Shown piece by piece: positions 5,093-56,845 of a stretch of DNA of 64,000 nucleotides; position 1 is the first letter of the stretch, and each line of letters begins with the position of its first letter. The stretch covers positions 434,001 to 498,000 of the forward strand of contig JAPETS010000008.1 in NCBI GenBank assembly GCA_026023565.1. Direction: 5' to 3'. This DNA is from Cirrosporium novae-zelandiae. Lineage: Eukaryota. Made by a program: the position numbers and the translations under genes. Under the pieces are notes generated by a model, which searched no databases, was not told the DNA's origin, and was given only the letters and a program-made list of their open reading frames with translations.

Positions 5093-7015
5093 ATGAAGTT
5101 TCTTGTGTATGGCATCTATTTTATCGCTCTCCTTTCAATAGGAGTTTCTGAGATATTGCAAAATGGACAAGTTCGTGGTAATCCTTATCCAGGACAAGCA
5201 AGTTTGGTCCAGGTAGCAAATAGCTCCTTCTGGAAAACATATCCTCCAAATTCTACACTGCTCTCCTACAAGGGGAGATGGGATAGCAAGTATATTTCAT
5301 GTTAGCATCAATTAGGTTTGTATATTCTTCAATAATTAAGACTAATATCGCAATTAGGGTGGTCGTTAGCATAGACTTCAATTGGTTCTAGCCTAGAAGT
5401 ATTTATTTATTCTATAGCGCTCCTAGGTTGAAGTTTGGGTTTACTGGAGATGATGTCTACAGAATTAAATCGGACTTATTTGATGAAAGCTGACCCCTTC
5501 AAAGGTCGCCATCAGCTTTGGCAATTATACAGACCAAGGAGTCTCGGTAGCCTACCGGTACCTTATCCATATAGAAAGACTAGGATTCGACAAAAATATC
5601 TTCTAACTGTCTACAGCGTTGATGGACAAGATTGGCAATTCTCCAACGTACCAGATCGATATCTCCAAATCCCTCACTTTCATATTCTAACCATGAAAGG
5701 TCACTGCGAATTCCACATATCAATTTGTCAGCCCAAGCACGACCGGGGTCAATCTTACGGTACCCACAAATGCTGTGCAGACCTTTGAAATCAGAGTAAC
5801 AAACTGGGCCTACGGATAAGTTACTTCGATTTCTGTGGTGGTGTGAGAATCTCTAACACTTATCACTGTGCAGTTAGATAGTATCTCCCTAGCAGCAAAT
5901 GGATCACTCTACAAGCTTCCCCAAATGTCCAAAACGATTGAGATAATCGGAGATTCGTGAGCGATTATAAAACCATGTATACTTTGCCTGGGTTACTTAT
6001 AGGTATTTAGATTGAGCGCTGGCTAATACGCTACATACGAAGTGAGCAACCTCCCTCCACCATCGGAAACTAGCCCTTACCGACATCGCAGGGCATATCC
6101 TCCTGTGCATGGGGTCTTGGTGAAGGCTTCGGCAACATCGAATTCTCCATAACAGCTTACCCAGGAATCTGTCTCACAGACAAGCAATGCTATGGAAACC
6201 ACCACGGTCAAGTATTTCCGAATCTTCTTCCTCTACCCGCTTCAACCTCACCTCCTCACCACATCTAACAGACATACCAATGGTGCCACACAAGCGACAC
6301 TTCTCCCCGCGCAATCTCCATCTGGGGTGACGAGCCTGAACTTTGGAATTTTTCAGCTCATCCTGCCGCGGATATCGTTGTGATTAACCTAGGTACAAAC
6401 GATAACAACACCGTCAACAATGTCACGAACGACGAGTTCTATGATAGCTATATAAATCTCGTGGACGAGGTGCATTACATTTGGCCCTCGGCGCAGATTA
6501 TTCTGTTGGTATGTCTGGTTTTGTAGCTTAGGGGTGGTGTTTTCCCTTCATGAACATATTTTAAGAGAGTAAGTGCATACACATATATAAGCTGACAACA
6601 AAACCTCGGTGATCCCAGAGCCTTTGGAATGGTTTCTCTGCCACCGGAAACACCTACGCTCAAGGCGGCGCTTTCATCACCGAAATCCACGATGTCTATC
6701 GCTACTATCTTTCTTCGTATGATGCGCCATTCGTACATTACTTCAACACCACAGGTATTATGCAACATAACGACATAGTAAGAACCCCCCCAAATTCTCT
6801 CTATTTAATACTACTACTGCCTACACGACATTTACTTACTAACTCTTTTTTTCAAATCTTAGGGACCGCAGTACCATCCCACGGACGTTGGACACATCAA
6901 GCTAGCGAGCCATCTACTGCAGTATATCCAGCTGATGTTCGGATGGCAGTTTGGAGCCACGGGTCCGGAAGTACAAGTACAAACACTGTATTGGAATGAT
7001 CAAGAAAATTATTGA
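5093..7015 (+). pseudogene. Secreted SGNH/GDSL esterase (lipase/acylhydrolase, CE2-like), 12 exons, in-frame TAA at 6024-6026; pseudogene or null allele
   Basis: Manual splicing gives signal peptide MKFLVYGIYFIALLSIGVS, TIEIIGDS|LSAG*YATYE (block I), VVINLGTND (block III), HNDI|GPQYHP (block V) and TGA at 7013-7015. Includes a 7-nt micro-exon at 5358-5364 and one AT-AC intron. Confidence 0.8.
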
Positions 7016-18237: not shown

Positions 18238-19621
18238 TTAGCTGTGGTTGGCACTAAGCGCAGATTTGGTGTCGGCGTCACTCGAGGAATCTCTTTTCGA
18301 ACCTCCAGTACCGCCGTCACCCTTATCTACTGAATTTTCATTGTTTTTCGTATCTTTACCGCATCCCTTGACAAGAACATGTCTCTATACATTTCATTAA
18401 TTTTGACCTCAATCAGTCGGTACTTCTTTGACGTACCTTGAGAGCGTCTTTTCTCGAGAAGCTTTTATCGCAATGATCGCATGGAAAGGGCTTAACAGCC
18501 AAATGTATTCGTTTATGCCTTTTCAGGTCATGATTACGGTTAAACCCCTGTGGACATTGATCGCATTTGAAAGGACGATCGTTCTGCGAAGTTTGATGAG
18601 GTGCCGGATGTCCTCCATAAATCTGTTGCATATGCGCAGCGTGTCCACTATTGAACCCAGGAACCATTCCTCCATGCATCCCACCCACCAACGACATGGG
18701 ATGCCCAGGACTAGTTACGTTCGACATTATAGGGCCAGCCATGGCAGGGAGAGGATAACCCGGATATGATCTTGCAAATTGTGCAGCAGCTTGGGTTCCC
18801 ATGGATGGCTGACCTGGATTTTGGCTGAGTGGCGACATCCTCGAGATTGGGCCACTTGAGCCCAGAGGACTTTGTTGCTGCCCCGCGTAGGCGGAGAAGC
18901 TATGTTGTTGTGGATTGGACGATGCGGGTGGACCTCCATAATAATTTGGGGTCGGTGGCGCTCTCTGAGAATAATATTCACTCATTGAGGAAGCTTGCGT
19001 TGTTTGTGGCATTTGATTAGATGTGTTCATGAAGGCTGTCGCCATAGGTTGTTGGTGGGTTGATTGCATGCTGTTTGAAGAAGCGGCCATGGTCACTGGA
19101 GCGGACCCAAAGGGTGGAAGTTGAGCTGGGTCTAATGGTGGTGGTGGTAGGTTATCCGTACTTGTGGGAGAGCCACCGTTATTTCGCAGGATCGAGAGAG
19201 AAGGTGAGAAAGAACTTTTTGGGAACATTGAATTACCTTGATTATTCCAACCCTGGGGGGTTGTCCCAGTTCCATATCCATAAGCGGTCATTCCGGTGGG
19301 CCAGTAAGTGTTTGGGGCATGCGACTGCACACTGGTGGTAGCTCCTGTGCTGCCGCTGTTGGGCCCAGAGGAAAGTGGACTTAGACTATCAGAAGGCCCA
19401 TGAGCCGGAGGGGTCAGGAGATTACCAGCACCGTTTGAAGGTGCAGGTTGCGACTGAGTCGCATGGAGTATGGGAAAGGGTGGGTATTTTTGTGCTGCGT
19501 TGGATAATTGGGAGAGCGAAGGAGGTGGAAGTGGTAACTCCATGGCGGGCATATTCAACGTTGCAGAACGGCGTGCTGACAAACTTTGGGGAGGATTAAG
19601 GGCATCAAGGGAAGATGCCAT
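18238..19621 (-). CDS. flbC: Two-finger C2H2 transcription factor, FlbC/FLE1-like developmental regulator (AUG-initiated form); intron 18385-18436
   Basis: DRPFKCDQCPQGFNRNHDLKRHKRIHLAVKPFPCDHCDKSFSRKDALK|RHVLVKGCGK after splicing. Pro/Ser/Gln-rich N-terminus. First ATG at 19621 in GCCATGG context. The FlbC assignment is from my recollection of the finger sequence. Confidence 0.8.
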
Positions 19622-21513
19622 GGCTGGCTGCTGCACCACTGCAGTCGCCACGGTGGTGGGTCTTTGGTACACCTGCCCTAAAGGCTTGAAGGCGTCTGTC
19701 GGCGCCGTTGGTGGCGTCAGCAAATTGTTCAGGGATTTTATTCGGTTTTGCTGCTGCACCGGTGTCTGGCCAGCAGGCCAAAATCGCCCAGCGTCACCCT
19801 GGGAATCCAGCAATGGTGATCGATCGTGGTCCTCAAAAGGCGGAGATGGATATTGGTGAGTGGATGTCCTTAGAGTAGAAAGGGTGGACTCGTCCGGAAA
19901 GAACCTCGGGGGAGGGGCGAGGTATGCCGTCTTGAAGGATTGGCTGGGGCGGCGGGAGAAAGGCGAAGGTTCGATCGGGAAGTATGCAGGAGGGGAGAGT
20001 GATCGTTTTTGGTTCTGGGTCAGCAGCAAGATGGTTTGATCGGTGGACGAAGCAAGTGAGACAACACGGTCGGACTTAAATATGTGGGTGGGAACAACAA
20101 AAGTAGGGTAGGCTGAATCAACCTTTTACTACTAATGTTAGAACGGACGATGATATAAGCGTCGACGAGGAAAAAGTGATGATGATATTTTTTTTTAAAA
20201 TTGTACTGATTCGAGATTCGAGTTGTTGATAATGTTCCCAGCAAAGAAAGAGAGTGCGACGATCGTTTGAAGGGTCGAGGCGTGTGGGCGTCTTTTGGGG
20301 CTCCCTTGTTGGCGGGCAGGTAATAAGCTTGACGGGGTGGGTTTCTTTAGTCCGGGTCTCACTATCTATCACTGGGTCTTGTCGATCGATCGGGCACCGA
20401 CCCAAAAGACAAGTTTAGAGCACCAGCAGCAAGTAGAAAGGAACAACCCAGTCAAAGAAAAGAAATCGGCCCAATTTTATTTCTTCTTTTAAATAATTAT
20501 TAACCTGGTTCTTAGAGTTGACGCTGCAAGATTAACAATACAGCGATATAGTCGATATCACTCTCGAGATATCTGGAGGGGTGGTGGTGGTGGTGGGGGG
20601 GGGTGTTCGACGTTGGGGCCTTGCGCACCGAGTGTCGGAATTCTAGGGAAATGGGTACTTTGAAGTTGCCAGGTTAAGTTGTTTGGTTCGTCTCCGGGAT
20701 GATGGAATTCAAAAATAAAATAAAATCAAAAATCAAAAACAAAAGAGTGAAATAAGGTCTGAATTCAGGTCAGTTGACAGGGCCGTGAGTTGAAAAGTCG
20801 AATGCGTCGATCCCTTTGTTTAAACTCGTTTAAACTCGTACCACGGGGCGCTTTCAAGGTAATTGAGGGACGGGAAGGCGGTTGAATGGATGTGAGACGG
20901 TGTTGAACGCTGGACTTGTTGGATCGCGGCCTGGTAGCCTTGTGGCAGCCCTCGTCTATTCTCACTCTCACACACTCTTTCACAACACACACACACTCCT
21001 CTCTCACTTTCTTGTTTCGTTCTTTAGGCTTTTTGTCTCTCGCTATCTTCCTTCCTTCTCTCTCCTCCGTTTCCCTTCCTAGATATAGTAGTAGAAGGGT
21101 CCGGTTCAAACGTTTCAAAAGCCGTTTTCCACCGAGAGTCAGGAAAATAAAATAAACAAAGGCTGAAGAATAACTTGATGCTTTCTCTATGCAGCCTATT
21201 TTGCAGTCTATGCACGCGGAAGCCGAGTAATTGGGTACTGGTCAGAATATCCTCGTTGGTGGGCTGCGGCAGGGGGCTTGTTGCTGGTTTGACTGTTGGA
21301 ATTCCAAGGCGTCGAGAATAAGACGATTGAATTACGGGGAGATGGTCAATGATATCTATTTCCAAAAGGCAGCCCCTTGTACGGCTGGTAGGTAGTAGTG
21401 GTAGTAGTGCCTTGCCTATTACTTTAAATTATACTCCTGCAGGAGACTTTTTCTTTTTCTTCTTATTTTCTTCCTTTATTTTTTTTTCCCTTGGATTGAT
21501 CCTATTTCAATTT
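19622..21513 (-). promoter_or_regulatory. Putative very long AUG-free 5' leader of the flbC-like gene, with an in-frame open extension (19622-~20125)
   Basis: No CAT trinucleotide on the + strand in 1892 nt (manual scan). TATA-like TATAATTTAAA on the - strand at ~21423-21433. Confidence 0.6.
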
Positions 21514-22010
21514 CATGCCGGCTGTGCTCGATTGGCAAAGACCCCGGGTGACCCCAGCTCAGGACACCAGGTAGTCTGACAGTTCAGTTTTGATGCGAGT
21601 TCACCCGCAGCCAGAATCTGGAACTTCAGAGACTTTCACAGGCCGAGGACCAAATCCAGAACCCGAGAGGCCTGTTCCAAAGCGACAACCAAGCAACCAA
21701 CAGTACCGATTAAGCAGCTTAGCAAAGTTCTACAACCCTATCCTAGACAGTCATAGTTAATTTCTAGAGACTCTTGGGGACTTTAGACAGGGTTTGGCCG
21801 GCTGGACACCAAGACATCCACCAAGACAGGGGTTAAAACTCTAACCACCAAAAGTTCGGCCAAAAAAAATAAAACTCTCCTTGGTAATTTTGGAGGTGGG
21901 AAGGGGAGGGGGTGACTTAGGGAGGTATGGGGACTTTGGGGGGACTTTAGTCAACATTGGAGGGAAGAATGGTACTAAAGCCCGAGGAAGAATGATGGGG
22001 AGGGAAGAGA

Positions 22011-22106
22011 GATTGGTCGAAGATTGGCTAAAAGATTGGCTAAACAACTTAACAAGAAGCTGGAGAAGTCGGCGTATCAAATCATCAAATGCAATCTTGA
22101 CCAATC
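22011..22106. promoter_or_regulatory. Cluster of CCAAT boxes upstream of the flbC-like gene
   Basis: GATTGG at 22011, 22022 and 22034 (about one helical turn apart) and CCAATC at 22101. Confidence 0.45.
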
Positions 22107-23001
22107 TTAGTCCATCTCTCTTTTCTCTCTTTCCCTCTCTCTAACTGTATAGCCTCTTGGTTTGTTAGTCTCTTAGTCTCTAAGTCTCTTAGTCGCTTGG
22201 TCTCTTAGTCTCTTATTCCATCTTAATACATCTTAGTCAAGTTTCCCTTGATCGCAATATCTCAGATAGGTATAGTTACGCGTTCGGAAGATGCCCCGTA
22301 CGGTTACCACTAAATCATACACCACCTCCCTTTCCTTTTCCATCTCCGAAATCACGTCACTATATCAAGATCCAAGATCCGCTCTAATACCAATACCCAA
22401 TCTGTCAACCGTCGAGGCTTAAATATCAATAATTCATTTCTTCCACGAGGCCATCCGTCCCCGGAAATCTCACTTGGATGTGAATCCAGTGATAGATAAT
22501 CCGGAATAAAAAAATATATCGAGAATCTCGTCTGTCATTCGCAAAGCGTAAGCGGCGGCCATGCTCCTGATTTAGGCCTAATCAATCTTTGGACCATGAA
22601 AACCCGCCTTCTCCGTAATGAACGGGCCACTGACAGAAACGCCCCATCCATGATCAGGGAGGAAGGTAAAGGGAAAAACGAAAGGGATGGTGACCATAAA
22701 CTCAATGGCTTTGAAGCCACTACCGTCAGGAGCCTCGACCGGCTTTGGTGGCAGCTGGGGAACCTGCCATGGGCTGATCGAAAAATTGTCTGTTTGGGAT
22801 TGTGGTCATTCTAACTTCCGTCATCTAAGAACTTACCTAACCAATCTTTGTCTCGTGCAACTTTGACTCTAAGGATAGAATACATAGACGGTGAGATGGT
22901 GAGATGAAGATTGAAGAGAGATGCCCAGTAATTGCCCATTGCTTTGGAGCTAAATAGCCTACCCTGACAAAGATGGTGTCGAAACCTGCGCATAACACAT
23001 A

Positions 23002-52985: not shown

Positions 52986-54728
52986 CTAATGTCCACCATT
53001 CCCAGGTCTCCTCAACCCCTCAATTCTCTCCCCAAACCCCTCCGCCCCACCTTCCCTCCTCACAATCTCCCTCACCCCCTCCACCCCCATCATCATCGTC
53101 GTCATTGTCACCCCATCATCCCTCCCGCCCCCCTCCCCCTCCCCAGCCCCACCACCACCAACCCACCCCACAATTCCCATATTCCTCGTACTCGGGATCC
53201 TTAGCCACTCCGTCCTAACCTCGAACCCGCATTCCCTGGCCAGCCGAATCACATAGCTGCATAGAGATGCATATGTGGATTCTTGTTTTTGGATGCGGTG
53301 GGCTTTTAGGGTGGTGAGGGAGCCGGAGGTGGAGTTGGGGTTGGGGTTTGTGGGTGGGGTTGTTGGTGGTTGGGATGGTTTGGAGGAAAAGCGGAAACGG
53401 GATCCGTTGAGGGCGTGAGAGCAGCAGGGGATTGCGAGGAAGGGGGATTGGGAGAGGGAGGCTAGGAGGGGCGTCCAGGGCGTTAGTTCATCGGCGTGGT
53501 TGGAGATTAGGAATGTGTGGGGGGGGAAGACGCCGGTATGGATTTTGGGGTTGGTTTCGGTCGGGGGGTATTGTTGTTCTTCTTCTTGATCTTGTTGGGT
53601 CGGAGATAACAATTGCTGTGGTATCAGCATCATTTCTTCAAGGTGGCTTTGGATTTCCGGTTCAAACGTCGCCCACGTTTTCCGTCTCCGCGCATCGAAT
53701 CCCCACCCCCTATATCCCTCGCGGAGGAGTACACACACAAGGATTCCATTTCCGCACCCGATATCCACGAAGCCGTGGGGCATTTTCGAGGCCTTCTCGC
53801 ATGCTGGTACGCACGGGTCTAGGTTGTAGAGGTCGCGCCATAGCTCAACGAGGAAGGCGACAATTAGTAGGTCTTCGAAGACGTGTTTAGAGGGGTCGGT
53901 GCTTTCGACCCAGCTGCTAGAGAGGCGTTTTGCGTGCGTGAGTTTGAGCCGTGTGTATGTGTCTTGGAGCCGTTTTTGGGGGATGATGGTGTCGTGGATT
54001 ACTCGTTTTTGGTAACCTGATTGTTGGTTGTGGCTGTGTTTTGCTATGGTGGTGAGGAGGTTTGAGGCCGTTTTGACCAAACGTGGAGTGAGTTCTTGGG
54101 GGGAAGGCGGAGGGAAGAGGAGGTAGTAGAGGGTGAGGGTGTTTGGGGTCGTTTGTTGTTGATTTTGTTGTACTTGTTGTGGTTGATTAGGAGATGGGGG
54201 GAAGTAGCTGTAGTGGAATAGGAGCTGTTGGACAACAGGATGGTACCAGGGGATTGAGGACGGAGTGTTTGCGTGGGGGATGTAGATGACAGCAGAGTGG
54301 TGGGGAGAGTCTTCAGAGGTAGCAGTAGCAGTAGGACTCTCCTGTTGAAAGCTGCTATAGAAATGACAGGTCTGAATCAAGGAAGAATCCAGATTGGGAT
54401 TGCGAGGGATGAATCGGCGAACAATGGTGAAATCCAAACGGAGATGATCGCATTCCGGGGCCGGAGCTGGTCGAGTATCTTCAAGACTTTCCTTTTCTGT
54501 TTCTTTATTGATTTGTTTTGAGGTTTGGGGATTCCGGCTGTCGTAGAGGATGTCAGCGCGGAATAGGTGGCTTGAATTAATATTTGGGCGTTCAACCAGG
54601 TTCAGCATTACTTGCATGAAGATCGAGGGCGGAAAGGTGCATTCAGTCCTAGAGCAAGCTAGCTCCCATCTTCCTGCTTGGGAGAGGAGATTCACTGCCC
54701 CGAGAAATTTGGGAGATTCTCCCTCCAT
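52986..54728 (-). CDS. TRM44: tRNA(Ser) Um44 2'-O-methyltransferase
   Basis: WVESTDPSKHVFEDL, FVDIGCGNG (SAM motif I), GWGFDARRRKTW, ISNHADELTPW, IPCC, LRIPSTRN; first ATG at 54728. Confidence 0.92.
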   Translation of the reverse strand: MEGESPKFLGAVNLLSQAGRWELACSRTECTFPPSIFMQVMLNLVERPNINSSHLFRADILYDSRNPQTSKQINKETEKESLEDTRPAPAPECDHLRLDFTIVRRFIPRNPNLDSSLIQTCHFYSSFQQESPTATATSEDSPHHSAVIYIPHANTPSSIPWYHPVVQQLLFHYSYFPPSPNQPQQVQQNQQQTTPNTLTLYYLLFPPPSPQELTPRLVKTASNLLTTIAKHSHNQQSGYQKRVIHDTIIPQKRLQDTYTRLKLTHAKRLSSSWVESTDPSKHVFEDLLIVAFLVELWRDLYNLDPCVPACEKASKMPHGFVDIGCGNGILVCVLLREGYRGWGFDARRRKTWATFEPEIQSHLEEMMLIPQQLLSPTQQDQEEEQQYPPTETNPKIHTGVFPPHTFLISNHADELTPWTPLLASLSQSPFLAIPCCSHALNGSRFRFSSKPSQPPTTPPTNPNPNSTSGSLTTLKAHRIQKQESTYASLCSYVIRLARECGFEVRTEWLRIPSTRNMGIVGWVGGGGAGEGEGGGRDDGVTMTTMMMGVEGVREIVRREGGAEGFGERIEGLRRPGNGGH

Positions 54729-56845
54729 TGAAAAAATCACAGTCGCACTGAAAGCCTCCACGAAAAGAAAATATTGGGTGATGAGAGAAAAAATAAACCC
54801 CACCGCATGCGTGTTTCTCTAAACGCTAATTAGCTTAGAAGAAATATGGCTCGAGATTAGCTGTTGATATCGTTAAGCCAATATATGAAAATATTCGAAT
54901 TTTTATTGGCTTTTTGCAAGTACCACATTTATACTTGACATGAATAAGTACTCGCTTCACCTGTTGGTGTTCTCCATGGGAAATCTACAACCAGAACAGC
55001 TATATCTATTACAGGAACGACTTCCTGAACATGACTAATTATTCTTTATTTTTCTCGTTGCTTTTATTTGCATCCATGTCTAAAATGAAACCAAGCCAAC
55101 TTAAGAGTAGGATTCATCCGTTTGAAACTACGGGACTTATGTCTCTGCTGTTTGCACTCGACTGATGTTGACAGATGACTATCAAACTTTCCTGAAGAAC
55201 AGAGATGGCTGTCGGGTGGGAAATTGTACCGATTTAAGGCTACAAAAGTTGATTGGGTCTTTGGACACAGCATGAAACATACTATACTCGTGCCACCTAT
55301 CGTGTTACCCATCGCACGCATCGTCTCTCACTGGCTCACAGCAGAAGAAGTTTAGAAGACAAAAAAGATCAAAGAAACTAGGCAACTAAAGAATCGTCTG
55401 TCCTCGGTACCTTCCTACGATTCGAGCTCCTGCTGGATCAAGAAGGTCAAATGGCACAGTATTACACCCGAGATGCAGCATCCCTCAGGATGGATGTTTG
55501 TAGGAGGTGATCCAACCATTTTGCAACAAGTACCGTGTTCCTATGTATATGCAAACCCTAGCTATCAGGCAATAGTTCTGTGAACATAACGACACCGACC
55601 AAAGGAGAGTTGCTGCACGTACCAGCCTTGGAAGAAGGACTGGAGATGGATGCTTGATGGTAAGGACGAGGGAACGTGGATTCAGGACACCATCGACCGG
55701 TCGGAACTTTGGATGCCAATATGATGCAAACGGCCCTGCACCAACAATTACCATTCACGGTATCTCGAATCTTAACCAGAGAAATTGATTTTTGGGGCTT
55801 TAGAAAACTCTTAACCGTCTGATGGATGAAGAAGAAGAAGAAGAAGCTACAGTTGATGGTGATACATCTTGTGGGCTATGTTTTATATTATTTTTGCGAA
55901 ACCAAGCATATTGATTGGAAAGTTGTGAGACATTGCTTCTTCCTAGTGGTTTTGTTTGATTATAAGGATTTGTTTCTTGATTTGATAGGGCTGTATAGAG
56001 CTGTACAGCCAGATTGTAGATTTTAGGTGTTTTTGAGTATGTGCTAAACGTTGGAATAGGCGGGAAGTAACTAAAAGAGTTGAGATTTGGGGCCGGTATC
56101 TCCGGTTGTTTAGGTCTTTACGACTTTGATAGCTTTGCCTCAATCTGCCACTTTTCAAGTAGGAATCTTGATTTGTTGCTGATCTTCTTCTCCGCCCATT
56201 AACTATCTAGGTATCTTCCGCATAAGCTTAGTTACCCAAACGGAACCCAATCAACCGCCCCCCCGACCCCCGAACCCCCCCAAGAACTTTCCCCTATTGC
56301 ATACCCCTCGGACGGGCTCTAAACAACCCCCAAGACATTTCCGATACCTCAGCGTCCTCAGGTCATCCCCGACATGCCCGCCTATCAACCCCATCCACAA
56401 TCCCCCGACTCTCAAAAAAACTGTCTCTAAAAAGTATATCAATTCATCTCATACCCCCCCCCAAAAGGATACCCCTCACCCGAAGCTCTGCAGCCAGCAT
56501 TTACCACAGAACCATTGAGGGGTCTGTGATTAAAGCACCGTGAGCACCTAAGTCAACGCCTGTTCCTAAAGCCTCCTATCGCGGTCTAGGTACCCTCTTA
56601 CCTGTCCCCGTATGGGCTAGTTGGTGACCTACACACTCGTGCTATTCCTTCCATCAATTATCATCATTTCTTCTGCCTTTAACAACCCTCCAATTTCAAA
56701 CAATCTCCTCTCTGCAAGTCGTCTCGTTTCCTACAGCCTCTTATCTTTAACCTTACTGTCGCCAGTAAGCGCTCTTTACTCCACTCCATCTATTTTGTGC
56801 ACATCGTCTACCGGTACCGATGCCTGAAAGGCTGAAAAGATTCGC

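Follow-up and report, generated by a model that had tools for sequence, protein, structure and literature searches.

Upstream of a minus-strand zinc-finger gene of Cirrosporium novae-zelandiae, on contig JAPETS010000008.1, lies a stretch of 1892 nucleotides (nt) without an AUG in any frame on the strand of the gene (19622..21513). It falls within the 64,000-nt segment analyzed here (positions 434,001 to 498,000 of the contig; hereafter the window), and by its sequence the gene encodes a transcription factor related to HscA of Aspergillus nidulans. The best explanation of this AUG-free run appears to be a two-part one, with 309 nt of unannotated coding sequence directly above the annotated start codon and a true leader of about 0.95-1.6 kilobases (kb) beyond it. 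We think it probable that a long, AUG-free, scanned leader feeds a series of nested non-AUG starts and that leaky scanning carries other subunits through to the AUG.

In this model, a capped messenger RNA (mRNA) with a leader of 0.95-1.5 kb would be scanned without interruption, there being no AUG in any frame to stop it. A fraction of the 40S subunits would start in the main frame at ACG 19930, CUG 19810, or GUG 19651, and those passing the near-cognate sites would start at the first AUG (19621). As no AUG in any frame lies between these sites and 19621, the remaining subunits would reach it. The predicted products are nested isoforms of about 546, 506, 453, and 443 amino acids.

AUG depletion in the window

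A computed count confirmed the absence of CAT from the plus strand of 19622..21513 that the initial annotation had reported from reading by eye, and likewise its figure for the opposite strand, on which we counted 23 ATG. The run is bordered by CATs at 19619-19621 (the annotated AUG) and 21514-21516. The roughly 30 AUGs once thought to be expected proved too many, the number being about 20 by dinucleotide shuffles and about 25 by single-base composition. In 2000 dinucleotide-preserving shuffles, the span was expected to hold 19.6 +/- 3.6 CATs, with a minimum of 7 and none observed; the Poisson probability of zero at a mean of 19.6 is about 3e-9. Of all 64 trinucleotides, CAT alone deviates strongly in the span (0 observed against 19.7 expected); CGC follows, with 10 observed versus 15.6. 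The CAT-free run (1892-1894 nt) is also the longest for any trinucleotide within the 64-kb window. The second-longest CAT-free run, of 611 nt (53840-54450, minus strand), lies within a 610-codon stop-free frame (52986-54818) and is a Met-poor coding stretch.

The depletion is therefore strand-specific and, by the comparison with shuffled sequence that the initial annotation had proposed, far beyond chance. A chance or compositional artefact, arising from low complexity or from mutation bias of the repeat-induced point mutation (RIP) type, might draw on the G-poor sense strand of the leader (19% G), but the shuffles never gave fewer than 7 CATs and the complementary ATG is present at normal density. 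The region is also non-repetitive, with neither repeats nor low complexity found in 19622..21513, and the depletion recurs in unrelated sequence upstream of orthologues. Given the shuffles and the orthologue upstream counts, we consider this explanation refuted and scarcely credible. As a separate observation, the sense strand is C-rich and G-poor (plus-strand GC skew +0.2 to +0.32) through the coding sequence (CDS) and about 1.4 kb of leader, and the skew drops to about 0 above 21000.

A scan of 19400-22400 against Rfam gave no family at gathering score; sub-threshold microRNA-like matches fell at 21964-22157, outside the AUG-free run. In 200-nt windows, folding of the leader was no better or worse than that of mononucleotide shuffles (z from -2 to +2).

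AUG depletion upstream of orthologues

The depletion is a conserved family trait. A scan of metagenome contigs yielded 80 orthologous loci (referred to by L numbers), which were collapsed to 29 lineages at about 88% identity, with L010 dropped as a near-duplicate of L006. Upstream counts were made in 200-nt bins, excluding the window, with 26 lineages in the first bin and down to 22 in the fourth. Sense versus antisense ATG numbered 5 versus 96, 8 versus 90, 14 versus 81, and 6 versus 77 in the four successive bins above the AUG, so that sense AUG density over the first 800 nt was 1-3 per kb and antisense density 17-19 per kb. Sense AUG density was back at the antisense, or background, level by about -1400. 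In every lineage with at least 800 nt upstream (22/22), sense AUGs (0-4) were fewer than antisense AUGs (7-25).

The orthologue count, which the initial annotation had also called for, thus returned recurrent depletion rather than normal AUG density. Because the depletion is beyond chance, strand-specific, and shared by orthologues, it is best read as the work of selection that keeps AUGs out of a long scanned leader. That much of the initial annotation's proposal of a long scanned leader under such selection stands, on the depletion itself, its recurrence in orthologues, and complementary DNA (cDNA) leaders of at least 590-1007 nt in relatives; its extent does not, as at least 309 nt of the run look like coding sequence.

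A conserved in-frame extension above the annotated AUG

The sequence at 19622..19930 (minus strand), 103 codons in frame with the annotated CDS, has the marks of an unannotated N-terminal extension, namely protein-level conservation, fewer non-synonymous than synonymous differences, and insertions and deletions (indels) in multiples of three. Its translation aligns with many homologues (..LPSLD..AGQYWPGA..TLPTPPT..DVFKPPG..AAVQQPGM; consensus ..LD..G.(Y/F)WP.....LxTPPT..D.FKP.G), and the peptide motifs persist despite saturated synonymous change between classes. It is a conserved in-frame coding sequence upstream of an annotated AUG, the feature also used for the Neurospora crassa gene cpc-1. 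The ratio of non-synonymous to synonymous differences per site (pN/pS) in frame was 0.34-0.79, with pN<pS in 13/13 orthologue pairs, while in the same alignments pN exceeded pS in 13/13 pairs in frame +2 and in 9/13 in frame +1; these alignments were guided by the in-frame translation, which biases them toward that frame.

Alignments made at the nucleotide level place the edge of coding behavior at or near the candidate start codons. Between L006 and L017, the last frameshifting indel lies at -349, with identity of about 85% from the ACG at -312 onward, and between L004 and L014, the last 1-nt indel lies at -326, adjoining the ACG at about -321. In both pairs, frameshifting indels and low identity stop within 5-40 nt of the ACG, and downstream of this boundary all indels are multiples of three. 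Four pairs from other clades have the coding boundary at a second candidate site (site B, below), with frameshifting indels ending within 90 nt of it.

In the window, the nearest in-frame stop upstream of the extension is a TAA at 20126..20128, and above the AUG the main frame runs open for 168 codons. No in-frame AUG lies between the stop and the extension, either here or in the orthologues; the exceptions, in L006, L017, and L023, fall at the third candidate site (site C, below). When 45 open reading frame (ORF) fragments of 20000-22300 were compared with the 80 loci by tblastn, no protein-level conservation was found above 20000, and a search for longer proteins with the extension alone as query gave no match. 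Annotations of eukaryotes at NCBI start at the AUG, and the named Dothideomycete ones (Zymoseptoria, Cercospora, and Aureobasidium among them) take in nothing above it.

Thus at least 309 nt (19930-19622) of the supposed leader probably behave as coding sequence that begins at conserved non-AUG codons. The initial annotation had named the AUG at 19621 as the first in frame; in light of the coding-like extension and the conserved near-cognate codons, it is probably not the only start.

Candidate near-cognate start codons

Three near-cognate codons stand out within the extension. The uppermost, site A, is a conserved ACG at 19928..19930 (minus strand), 103 codons above the AUG, in the context ttcAAGACGGca with A at -3 and G at +4. 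An A at -3 together with a G at +4 makes a favorable initiation context. The longest form of the extension, in which homology begins at site A, occurs in the window and in L001, L003-5, the L006 group, L014, L017, and L026, at 103-107 codons above the AUG. In all lineages with the motif AA(A/G) ACG GCN (ACG ACG GCG in L026), the codon is ACG (7/7), and ACG makes up a share of 0.12-0.44 of the Thr codons in the CDS of the site-A lineages. Both L005 and L014 have an in-frame stop 7 codons above the ACG, with no other good near-cognate codon between the two. As L003 and L004, which are close to L005, do not have its stop, the sequence above the ACG tolerates one. This candidate ACG is most likely the start of the longest isoform (546 amino acids).

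Site B (19808..19813, minus strand) is a TTG CTG followed by GAT in the motif LP[SF][LV]D, with TTG at 19813-19811 and CTG at 19810-19808, 63 codons above the AUG, and is a second candidate non-AUG start. Of the 19 lineages with the motif LP[SF][LV][DA], 10 have CTG and 9 have GTG as the [LV] codon; the next base is always G, and the codon is usually preceded by TTG CCC. Three Dothideomycete-like lineages (L042, L064, and L072) have an in-frame stop 3-4 codons above a site B GTG, which is the only near-cognate codon between the stop and the conserved sequence; the L042 group is Dothideomycete, being 86% identical to a Cladosporium protein. Several metagenome proteins have been called from the site B GTG by prokaryote-style callers, which accept GTG by design, and we do not count these as evidence.

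Site C, the third candidate, is a GTG followed by GCG at 19649..19651 (minus strand), 10 codons above the AUG, in the context accaccGTGGcg, again with A at -3 and G at +4. The homologous codon, followed by GCN and lying 9-12 codons above the AUG, is GTG in 16 of 28 lineages, CTG in 8, and ATG in 3, and it is absent from 1; other Val or Leu codons never occur there, though the lineages are related and the codon counts at these sites are not fully independent. As a control, six invariant Leu or Val positions of the CDS use 3-6 codons each, with CTG in 30/159 Leu and GTG in 11/27 Val. This confinement of a Val/Leu/Met interchange to NTG is what is predicted for a start codon. The frame opens 3-7 codons above site C in L038, L054, L048, and L076, and the first three have in-frame stops 5-7 codons before it. 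In L038 (about 5935-6042) and L054, remnants of the longer extension (..PQPP..LPISSSD..) persist in frame, but a TAA interrupts them 6 codons above site C. From its sequence, this lineage appears to have lost the long isoforms and kept site C alone.

At the 5' edge of conservation, then, a near-cognate codon is conserved and its synonymous alternatives are avoided, and codon identity at sites A-C is fixed beyond amino-acid need. The initial annotation's own model, which makes all 1.9 kb an untranslated, scanned leader, so that the conserved upstream sequence would be a regulatory element of RNA or DNA rather than protein, fits the AUG depletion and its conservation equally well, and it agrees with the eukaryote annotations at NCBI, which begin at the AUG; non-AUG initiation is for its part deduced by comparing sequences. 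However, the extension evolves as protein, with pN<pS in the main frame only and indels confined to multiples of three only from the ACG or site B onward. Its peptide motifs survive saturated synonymous change, and a V/L/M interchange confined to NTG is a prediction for a start codon, not for an RNA motif. A conserved RNA fold was looked for in the 75 nt downstream of the ACG and in a conserved element farther up the leader, and no consensus fold was found in either. We therefore regard an untranslated 1.9 kb as quite improbable.

cDNA of relatives and the case for an upstream exon

The finger-coding region contains an intron in genomic orthologous loci. Six loci lack it, with ..DALK joined straight to RH.LVKGCGK, and are therefore assembled cDNA. 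Three of these contigs, each possibly 5'-incomplete so that the leader lengths are lower bounds, extend 590 nt (L025), 851 nt (L072), and 1007 nt (L053) above the AUG, with 0, 0, and 2 upstream AUGs, respectively, and carry the extension and leader with no AUG-bearing upstream exon. As a side observation, the two upstream AUGs of L053 (686-745) have AGACGAATGA as their common context, which looks like the result of a duplication. Apart from the missing finger intron, L025 forms a single unbroken alignment with its genomic counterparts and is colinear across the extension and 389 nt beyond. The leader is thus unspliced there, and an in-frame stop 3 codons before the TTG..CTG stays in the mRNA. 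The L072 mRNA likewise retains a TGA 3 codons before the GTG.

These cDNAs bear on the idea that a spliced upstream exon supplies an ordinary AUG for the extension, the gene structure being mis-annotated and the AUG-free stretch largely intron. Several lichen-fungus gene models at NCBI do include the extension by way of AUG exons predicted upstream of it, and the frame in the window is open for 65 codons above the ACG. The N-termini predicted in the lichen-fungus models are not homologous to one another, however, and the nearest sense AUG in the window lies 1.39 kb above the in-frame stop and opens an ORF of just 4 codons. The colinear L025 and L072, with its 851 AUG-free nt, both keep an in-frame stop just above the near-cognate codon and speak strongly against an AUG-bearing upstream exon, and an intron would face no selection against AUG. 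We hold such an exon to be very improbable. An in-frame TAG before site B in L015 and L016 was also considered as a splice acceptor and rejected, since the L025 cDNA is colinear there.

A conserved element and the upper part of the run

A blastn comparison of the window leader picked out one short conserved stretch, which extends to a non-coding element of about 90 nt at 20800..20915 (minus strand; ..CCAGCC..C(C/A)GCC(A/T)T..GCGCC.GG..GCTT..AACAAAGG(G)ATCG.C). Fifteen lineages, drawn from the ACG and GTG clades at least, carry it at 0.7-1.25 kb above the AUG and in the same orientation (L004 5035-5155, L016 5119-5239, and L042 5032-5152, among others), and it is kept across lineages whose proteins are just 40-50% identical. 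Its invariant core is AACAAAG (20820-20814, minus strand), which we take to resemble an HMG-box-type site. This 7-mer occurs between -686 and -1199 in 17/22 lineages with at least 1.2 kb upstream, although the match in L050 is not element-aligned.

The 5' end of the L053 cDNA lies inside the element, directly after CCGCCA. From the element to the main AUG, 14 orthologous lineages together have 25 sense versus 256 antisense AUGs, and the next sense AUG comes 24-359 nt above the element. Given this cDNA end and the limits of the AUG-poor zone, the element most likely marks the transcription start. The candidate start in the window would then be at about 20876, 1255 nt above the AUG, for a leader of about 1.25 kb; below this point, the window has 0 sense and 16 antisense AUGs.

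The upper boundary of the leader is a separate matter. Perhaps the leader reaches up only to the element (about 20876), and the further 640 nt, as far as 21513, belong to an untranscribed promoter from which ATG is missing by chance or composition. The AUG-poor zone of the 14 orthologous lineages, ending 24-359 nt above the element, and the cDNA that begins inside it are both consistent with a leader of this length. Against it, the chance of finding no ATG in 640 nt is about 1e-3 when reckoned from the local rate (19.6 per 1892 nt) and about 1e-5 from the window-wide rate, the same 640 nt have a normal antisense AUG density, and a TATA-like sequence (TATAATTTAAA, 21423..21433, minus strand) sits 80 nt inside the upper end of the run. 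We consider this shorter leader rather unlikely as a full account. The excess above the element suggests an additional distal start in C. novae-zelandiae, perhaps at the TATA-like element as a candidate distal promoter, or some other constraint.

The TATA-like element near the upper end of the run and a CCAAT cluster farther up, both described in the initial annotation, are there on rereading; the cluster consists of three CCAAT boxes within 28 nt (22012..22039, minus strand). It is flanked by about 9 tandem copies of an 8-nt, AGTCTCTT-like unit (22151-22222) and a 25-nt imperfect inverted repeat (21989-22138). The first sense AUG above the run opens the 4-codon ORF noted above (21502..21516, minus strand; MKLK, then stop).

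Several points weigh against nested non-AUG initiation from a long scanned leader. We infer initiation at the non-AUG codons and the relative use of the sites from sequence comparison, and likewise the transcription start in C. novae-zelandiae from the cDNA of relatives and from sequence. The AUG-free run of the window continues for 639 nt above the element (20877-21513), and the 65 open codons above the ACG leave room for a start farther upstream. At site B, the -3 base is a poor one (T), and the pN/pS of the pair L050-L053 is only 0.79. Depletion in orthologues is also incomplete, with 4 upstream AUGs within 800 nt in L001 and 4 in L048, 3 in each of L014 and L067, and an out-of-frame AUG at -8 in L024/L026, and one of the upstream AUGs of L053 begins an out-of-frame ORF of 100 codons, which overlaps the extension.

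Identity and structure of the gene

The ORF, with its two terminal zinc fingers, is 100% identical to a 443-residue hypothetical protein of C. novae-zelandiae (P0001), a fungus of the class Xylobotryomycetes, and its Pfam match is zf-C2H2. Mapping by tblastn at 100% identity places exon 1 (P0001 residues 1-395) at 18437..19621, a 52-nt intron at 18385..18436, within the second zinc finger after ..DALK, and exon 2 with the stop codon at 18238..18384, all on the minus strand. The first AUG (19619..19621, minus strand) is the annotated start of P0001, and the homologous residue is Met in 56/59 loci whose tblastn alignment covers the position. On either strand, no ATG-initiated ORF of at least 110 amino acids was found from the gene start (19621) to 26786, so that more than 7 kb of gene-poor sequence lie above the regulator.

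The label "flbC-like" given in the initial annotation did not hold. The fingers of A. nidulans FlbC (AN2421, 354 amino acids), as printed in the supplement of PMC8396895, are KCKVCDKRFTRPSSLQTHMYSHT and FACDVEGCGRHFSVVSNLRRHKKVH with the linker TGEKP, while those of the window protein are FKCDQCPQGFNRNHDLKRHKRIH and FPCDHCDKSFSRKDALKRHVLVKGC with the linker LAVKP; comparing the printed sequences of AN2421 and AN12029 with the window protein by reading, not with an alignment tool, we saw no N-terminal blocks in common with AN2421 and a whole-length match to AN12029. AN12029 (HscA, 413 amino acids), as printed there, has at its C-terminus the finger pair ..SFNRNHDLKRH.RIHLAVKP(F/Y)PC..CDK.FSRKDALKRH.LVKGC. 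The peptide NRNHDLKRH, found only in the AN12029 rows of the A. nidulans transcription-factor table in that supplement, is invariant in our alignment of the window protein and its homologues. Two further AN12029 blocks, N-terminal (M..L.....(S/P)L(S/T)ARR....LP.FELP) and internal (..YSLPAM.GP(I/V)MSNVHSPGGQM..), are present in both the consensus and the window row of this alignment (A1). As judged from these sequences, the gene is that of an HscA-family two-finger (C2H2 + C2HC) transcription factor, a relative of AN12029 and not FlbC. The Zymoseptoria tritici orthologue is MYCGRDRAFT_92288, and the gene studied in that species as ZtFlbC is another one, protein 100355 (PMC6102487). An ESM Atlas search returned generic "C2H2-type domain" names only.

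AN12029 was named HscA in 2025 and is described in that report as a regulator that is expressed in hyphae and acts in conidiation, sexual development, stress response, and mycotoxin production (PMC12306176).

Implications

If the nested non-AUG starts are real, virtually every annotated genome would show a wrong or incomplete N-terminus for this conserved regulator of fungal development. Constructs for deletion, tagging, or over-expression that start from the AUG, like those of the 2025 study of HscA, would omit up to 100 conserved residues, including the LPSLD, GQYWPG, and LPTPP motifs. Filamentous fungi would also gain, besides cpc-1, a second well-supported example of conserved non-AUG initiation at multiple sites, here with a leader free of upstream ORFs (uORFs). 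A long strand-specific AUG-free run ending at a conserved start element may serve as a sequence signature for finding more such genes. Orthologues in A. nidulans, A. flavus, and Z. tritici make the model directly testable.

Almost all of the lineages have the GUG or CUG site about 10 codons ahead of the first AUG, and the upper sites would add extensions of 60 or 100 residues in several classes. A broader possibility, which we put forward tentatively, is that HscA-family factors of Pezizomycotina are translated largely from near-cognate codons, with an AUG-free leader of 1-2 kb running from a conserved start element and an isoform ratio set by start-codon stringency, through the eukaryotic initiation factors eIF1 and eIF5 and phosphorylation of eIF2. 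There would then be a direct link from nutritional or stress state to a factor that regulates hyphal as opposed to reproductive development.

Comparison with known systems

N-terminal extension from a non-AUG codon by way of leaky scanning is already known; what is unusual here is the combination of three nested conserved sites with a uORF-free leader of 1-2 kb. In animals, non-AUG-initiated extensions with AUG-free leaders are made from c-Myc (CUG), FGF2 (CUG), and EIF4G2/DAP5 (GUG). The C. novae-zelandiae gene would resemble these in that leaky scanning past a near-cognate codon with a good context reaches an AUG farther down and so yields nested isoforms. It differs in protein and kingdom, and with its three nested conserved sites and AUG-less leader it would stand at the extreme end of this class.

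Among fungal developmental regulators, FlbC also carries a C-terminal zinc-finger pair, and in the sequence printed for AN2421, it is unrelated to the window protein outside the generic C2H2 pattern. The brlA-beta micro-ORF of A. nidulans offers a case of translational control of a developmental regulator through its leader (bioRxiv 10.1101/627414). The arrangement as presented in that preprint is a ribosome-blocking AUG uORF, whereas the leader discussed here is purged of AUGs. HscA itself, the hyphae-specific C2H2 factor AN12029 of A. nidulans and A. flavus, belongs to the same family as the window protein; the 2025 report, the one paper we found to name AN12029, takes the annotated AUG as its start, with an over-expression primer beginning ATGGGG, and its main text does not contain "start codon", "UTR", or "isoform" (PMC12306176). 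Our literature search, in which several queries used the mistaken name flbC, returned no report of non-AUG initiation or an AUG-free leader for the HscA family.

The closest described case is cpc-1 of N. crassa, which encodes the GCN4 homologue CPC1 and has conserved N-terminal extensions from several near-cognate codons (Ivanov et al. 2017, PMC5487733). The main text of that paper has no match for C2H2, zinc finger, or flbC. In cpc-1, near-cognate initiation has been demonstrated in vitro, while that of the window gene is proposed on comparative grounds. The cpc-1 leader is likewise long, at more than 700 nt, but it holds two AUG uORFs that control translation, unlike the 0.9-1.9 kb without an AUG found here. 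Both genes encode Pezizomycotina transcription factors whose main frame extends upstream of the AUG, with conservation across many species and several near-cognate codons.

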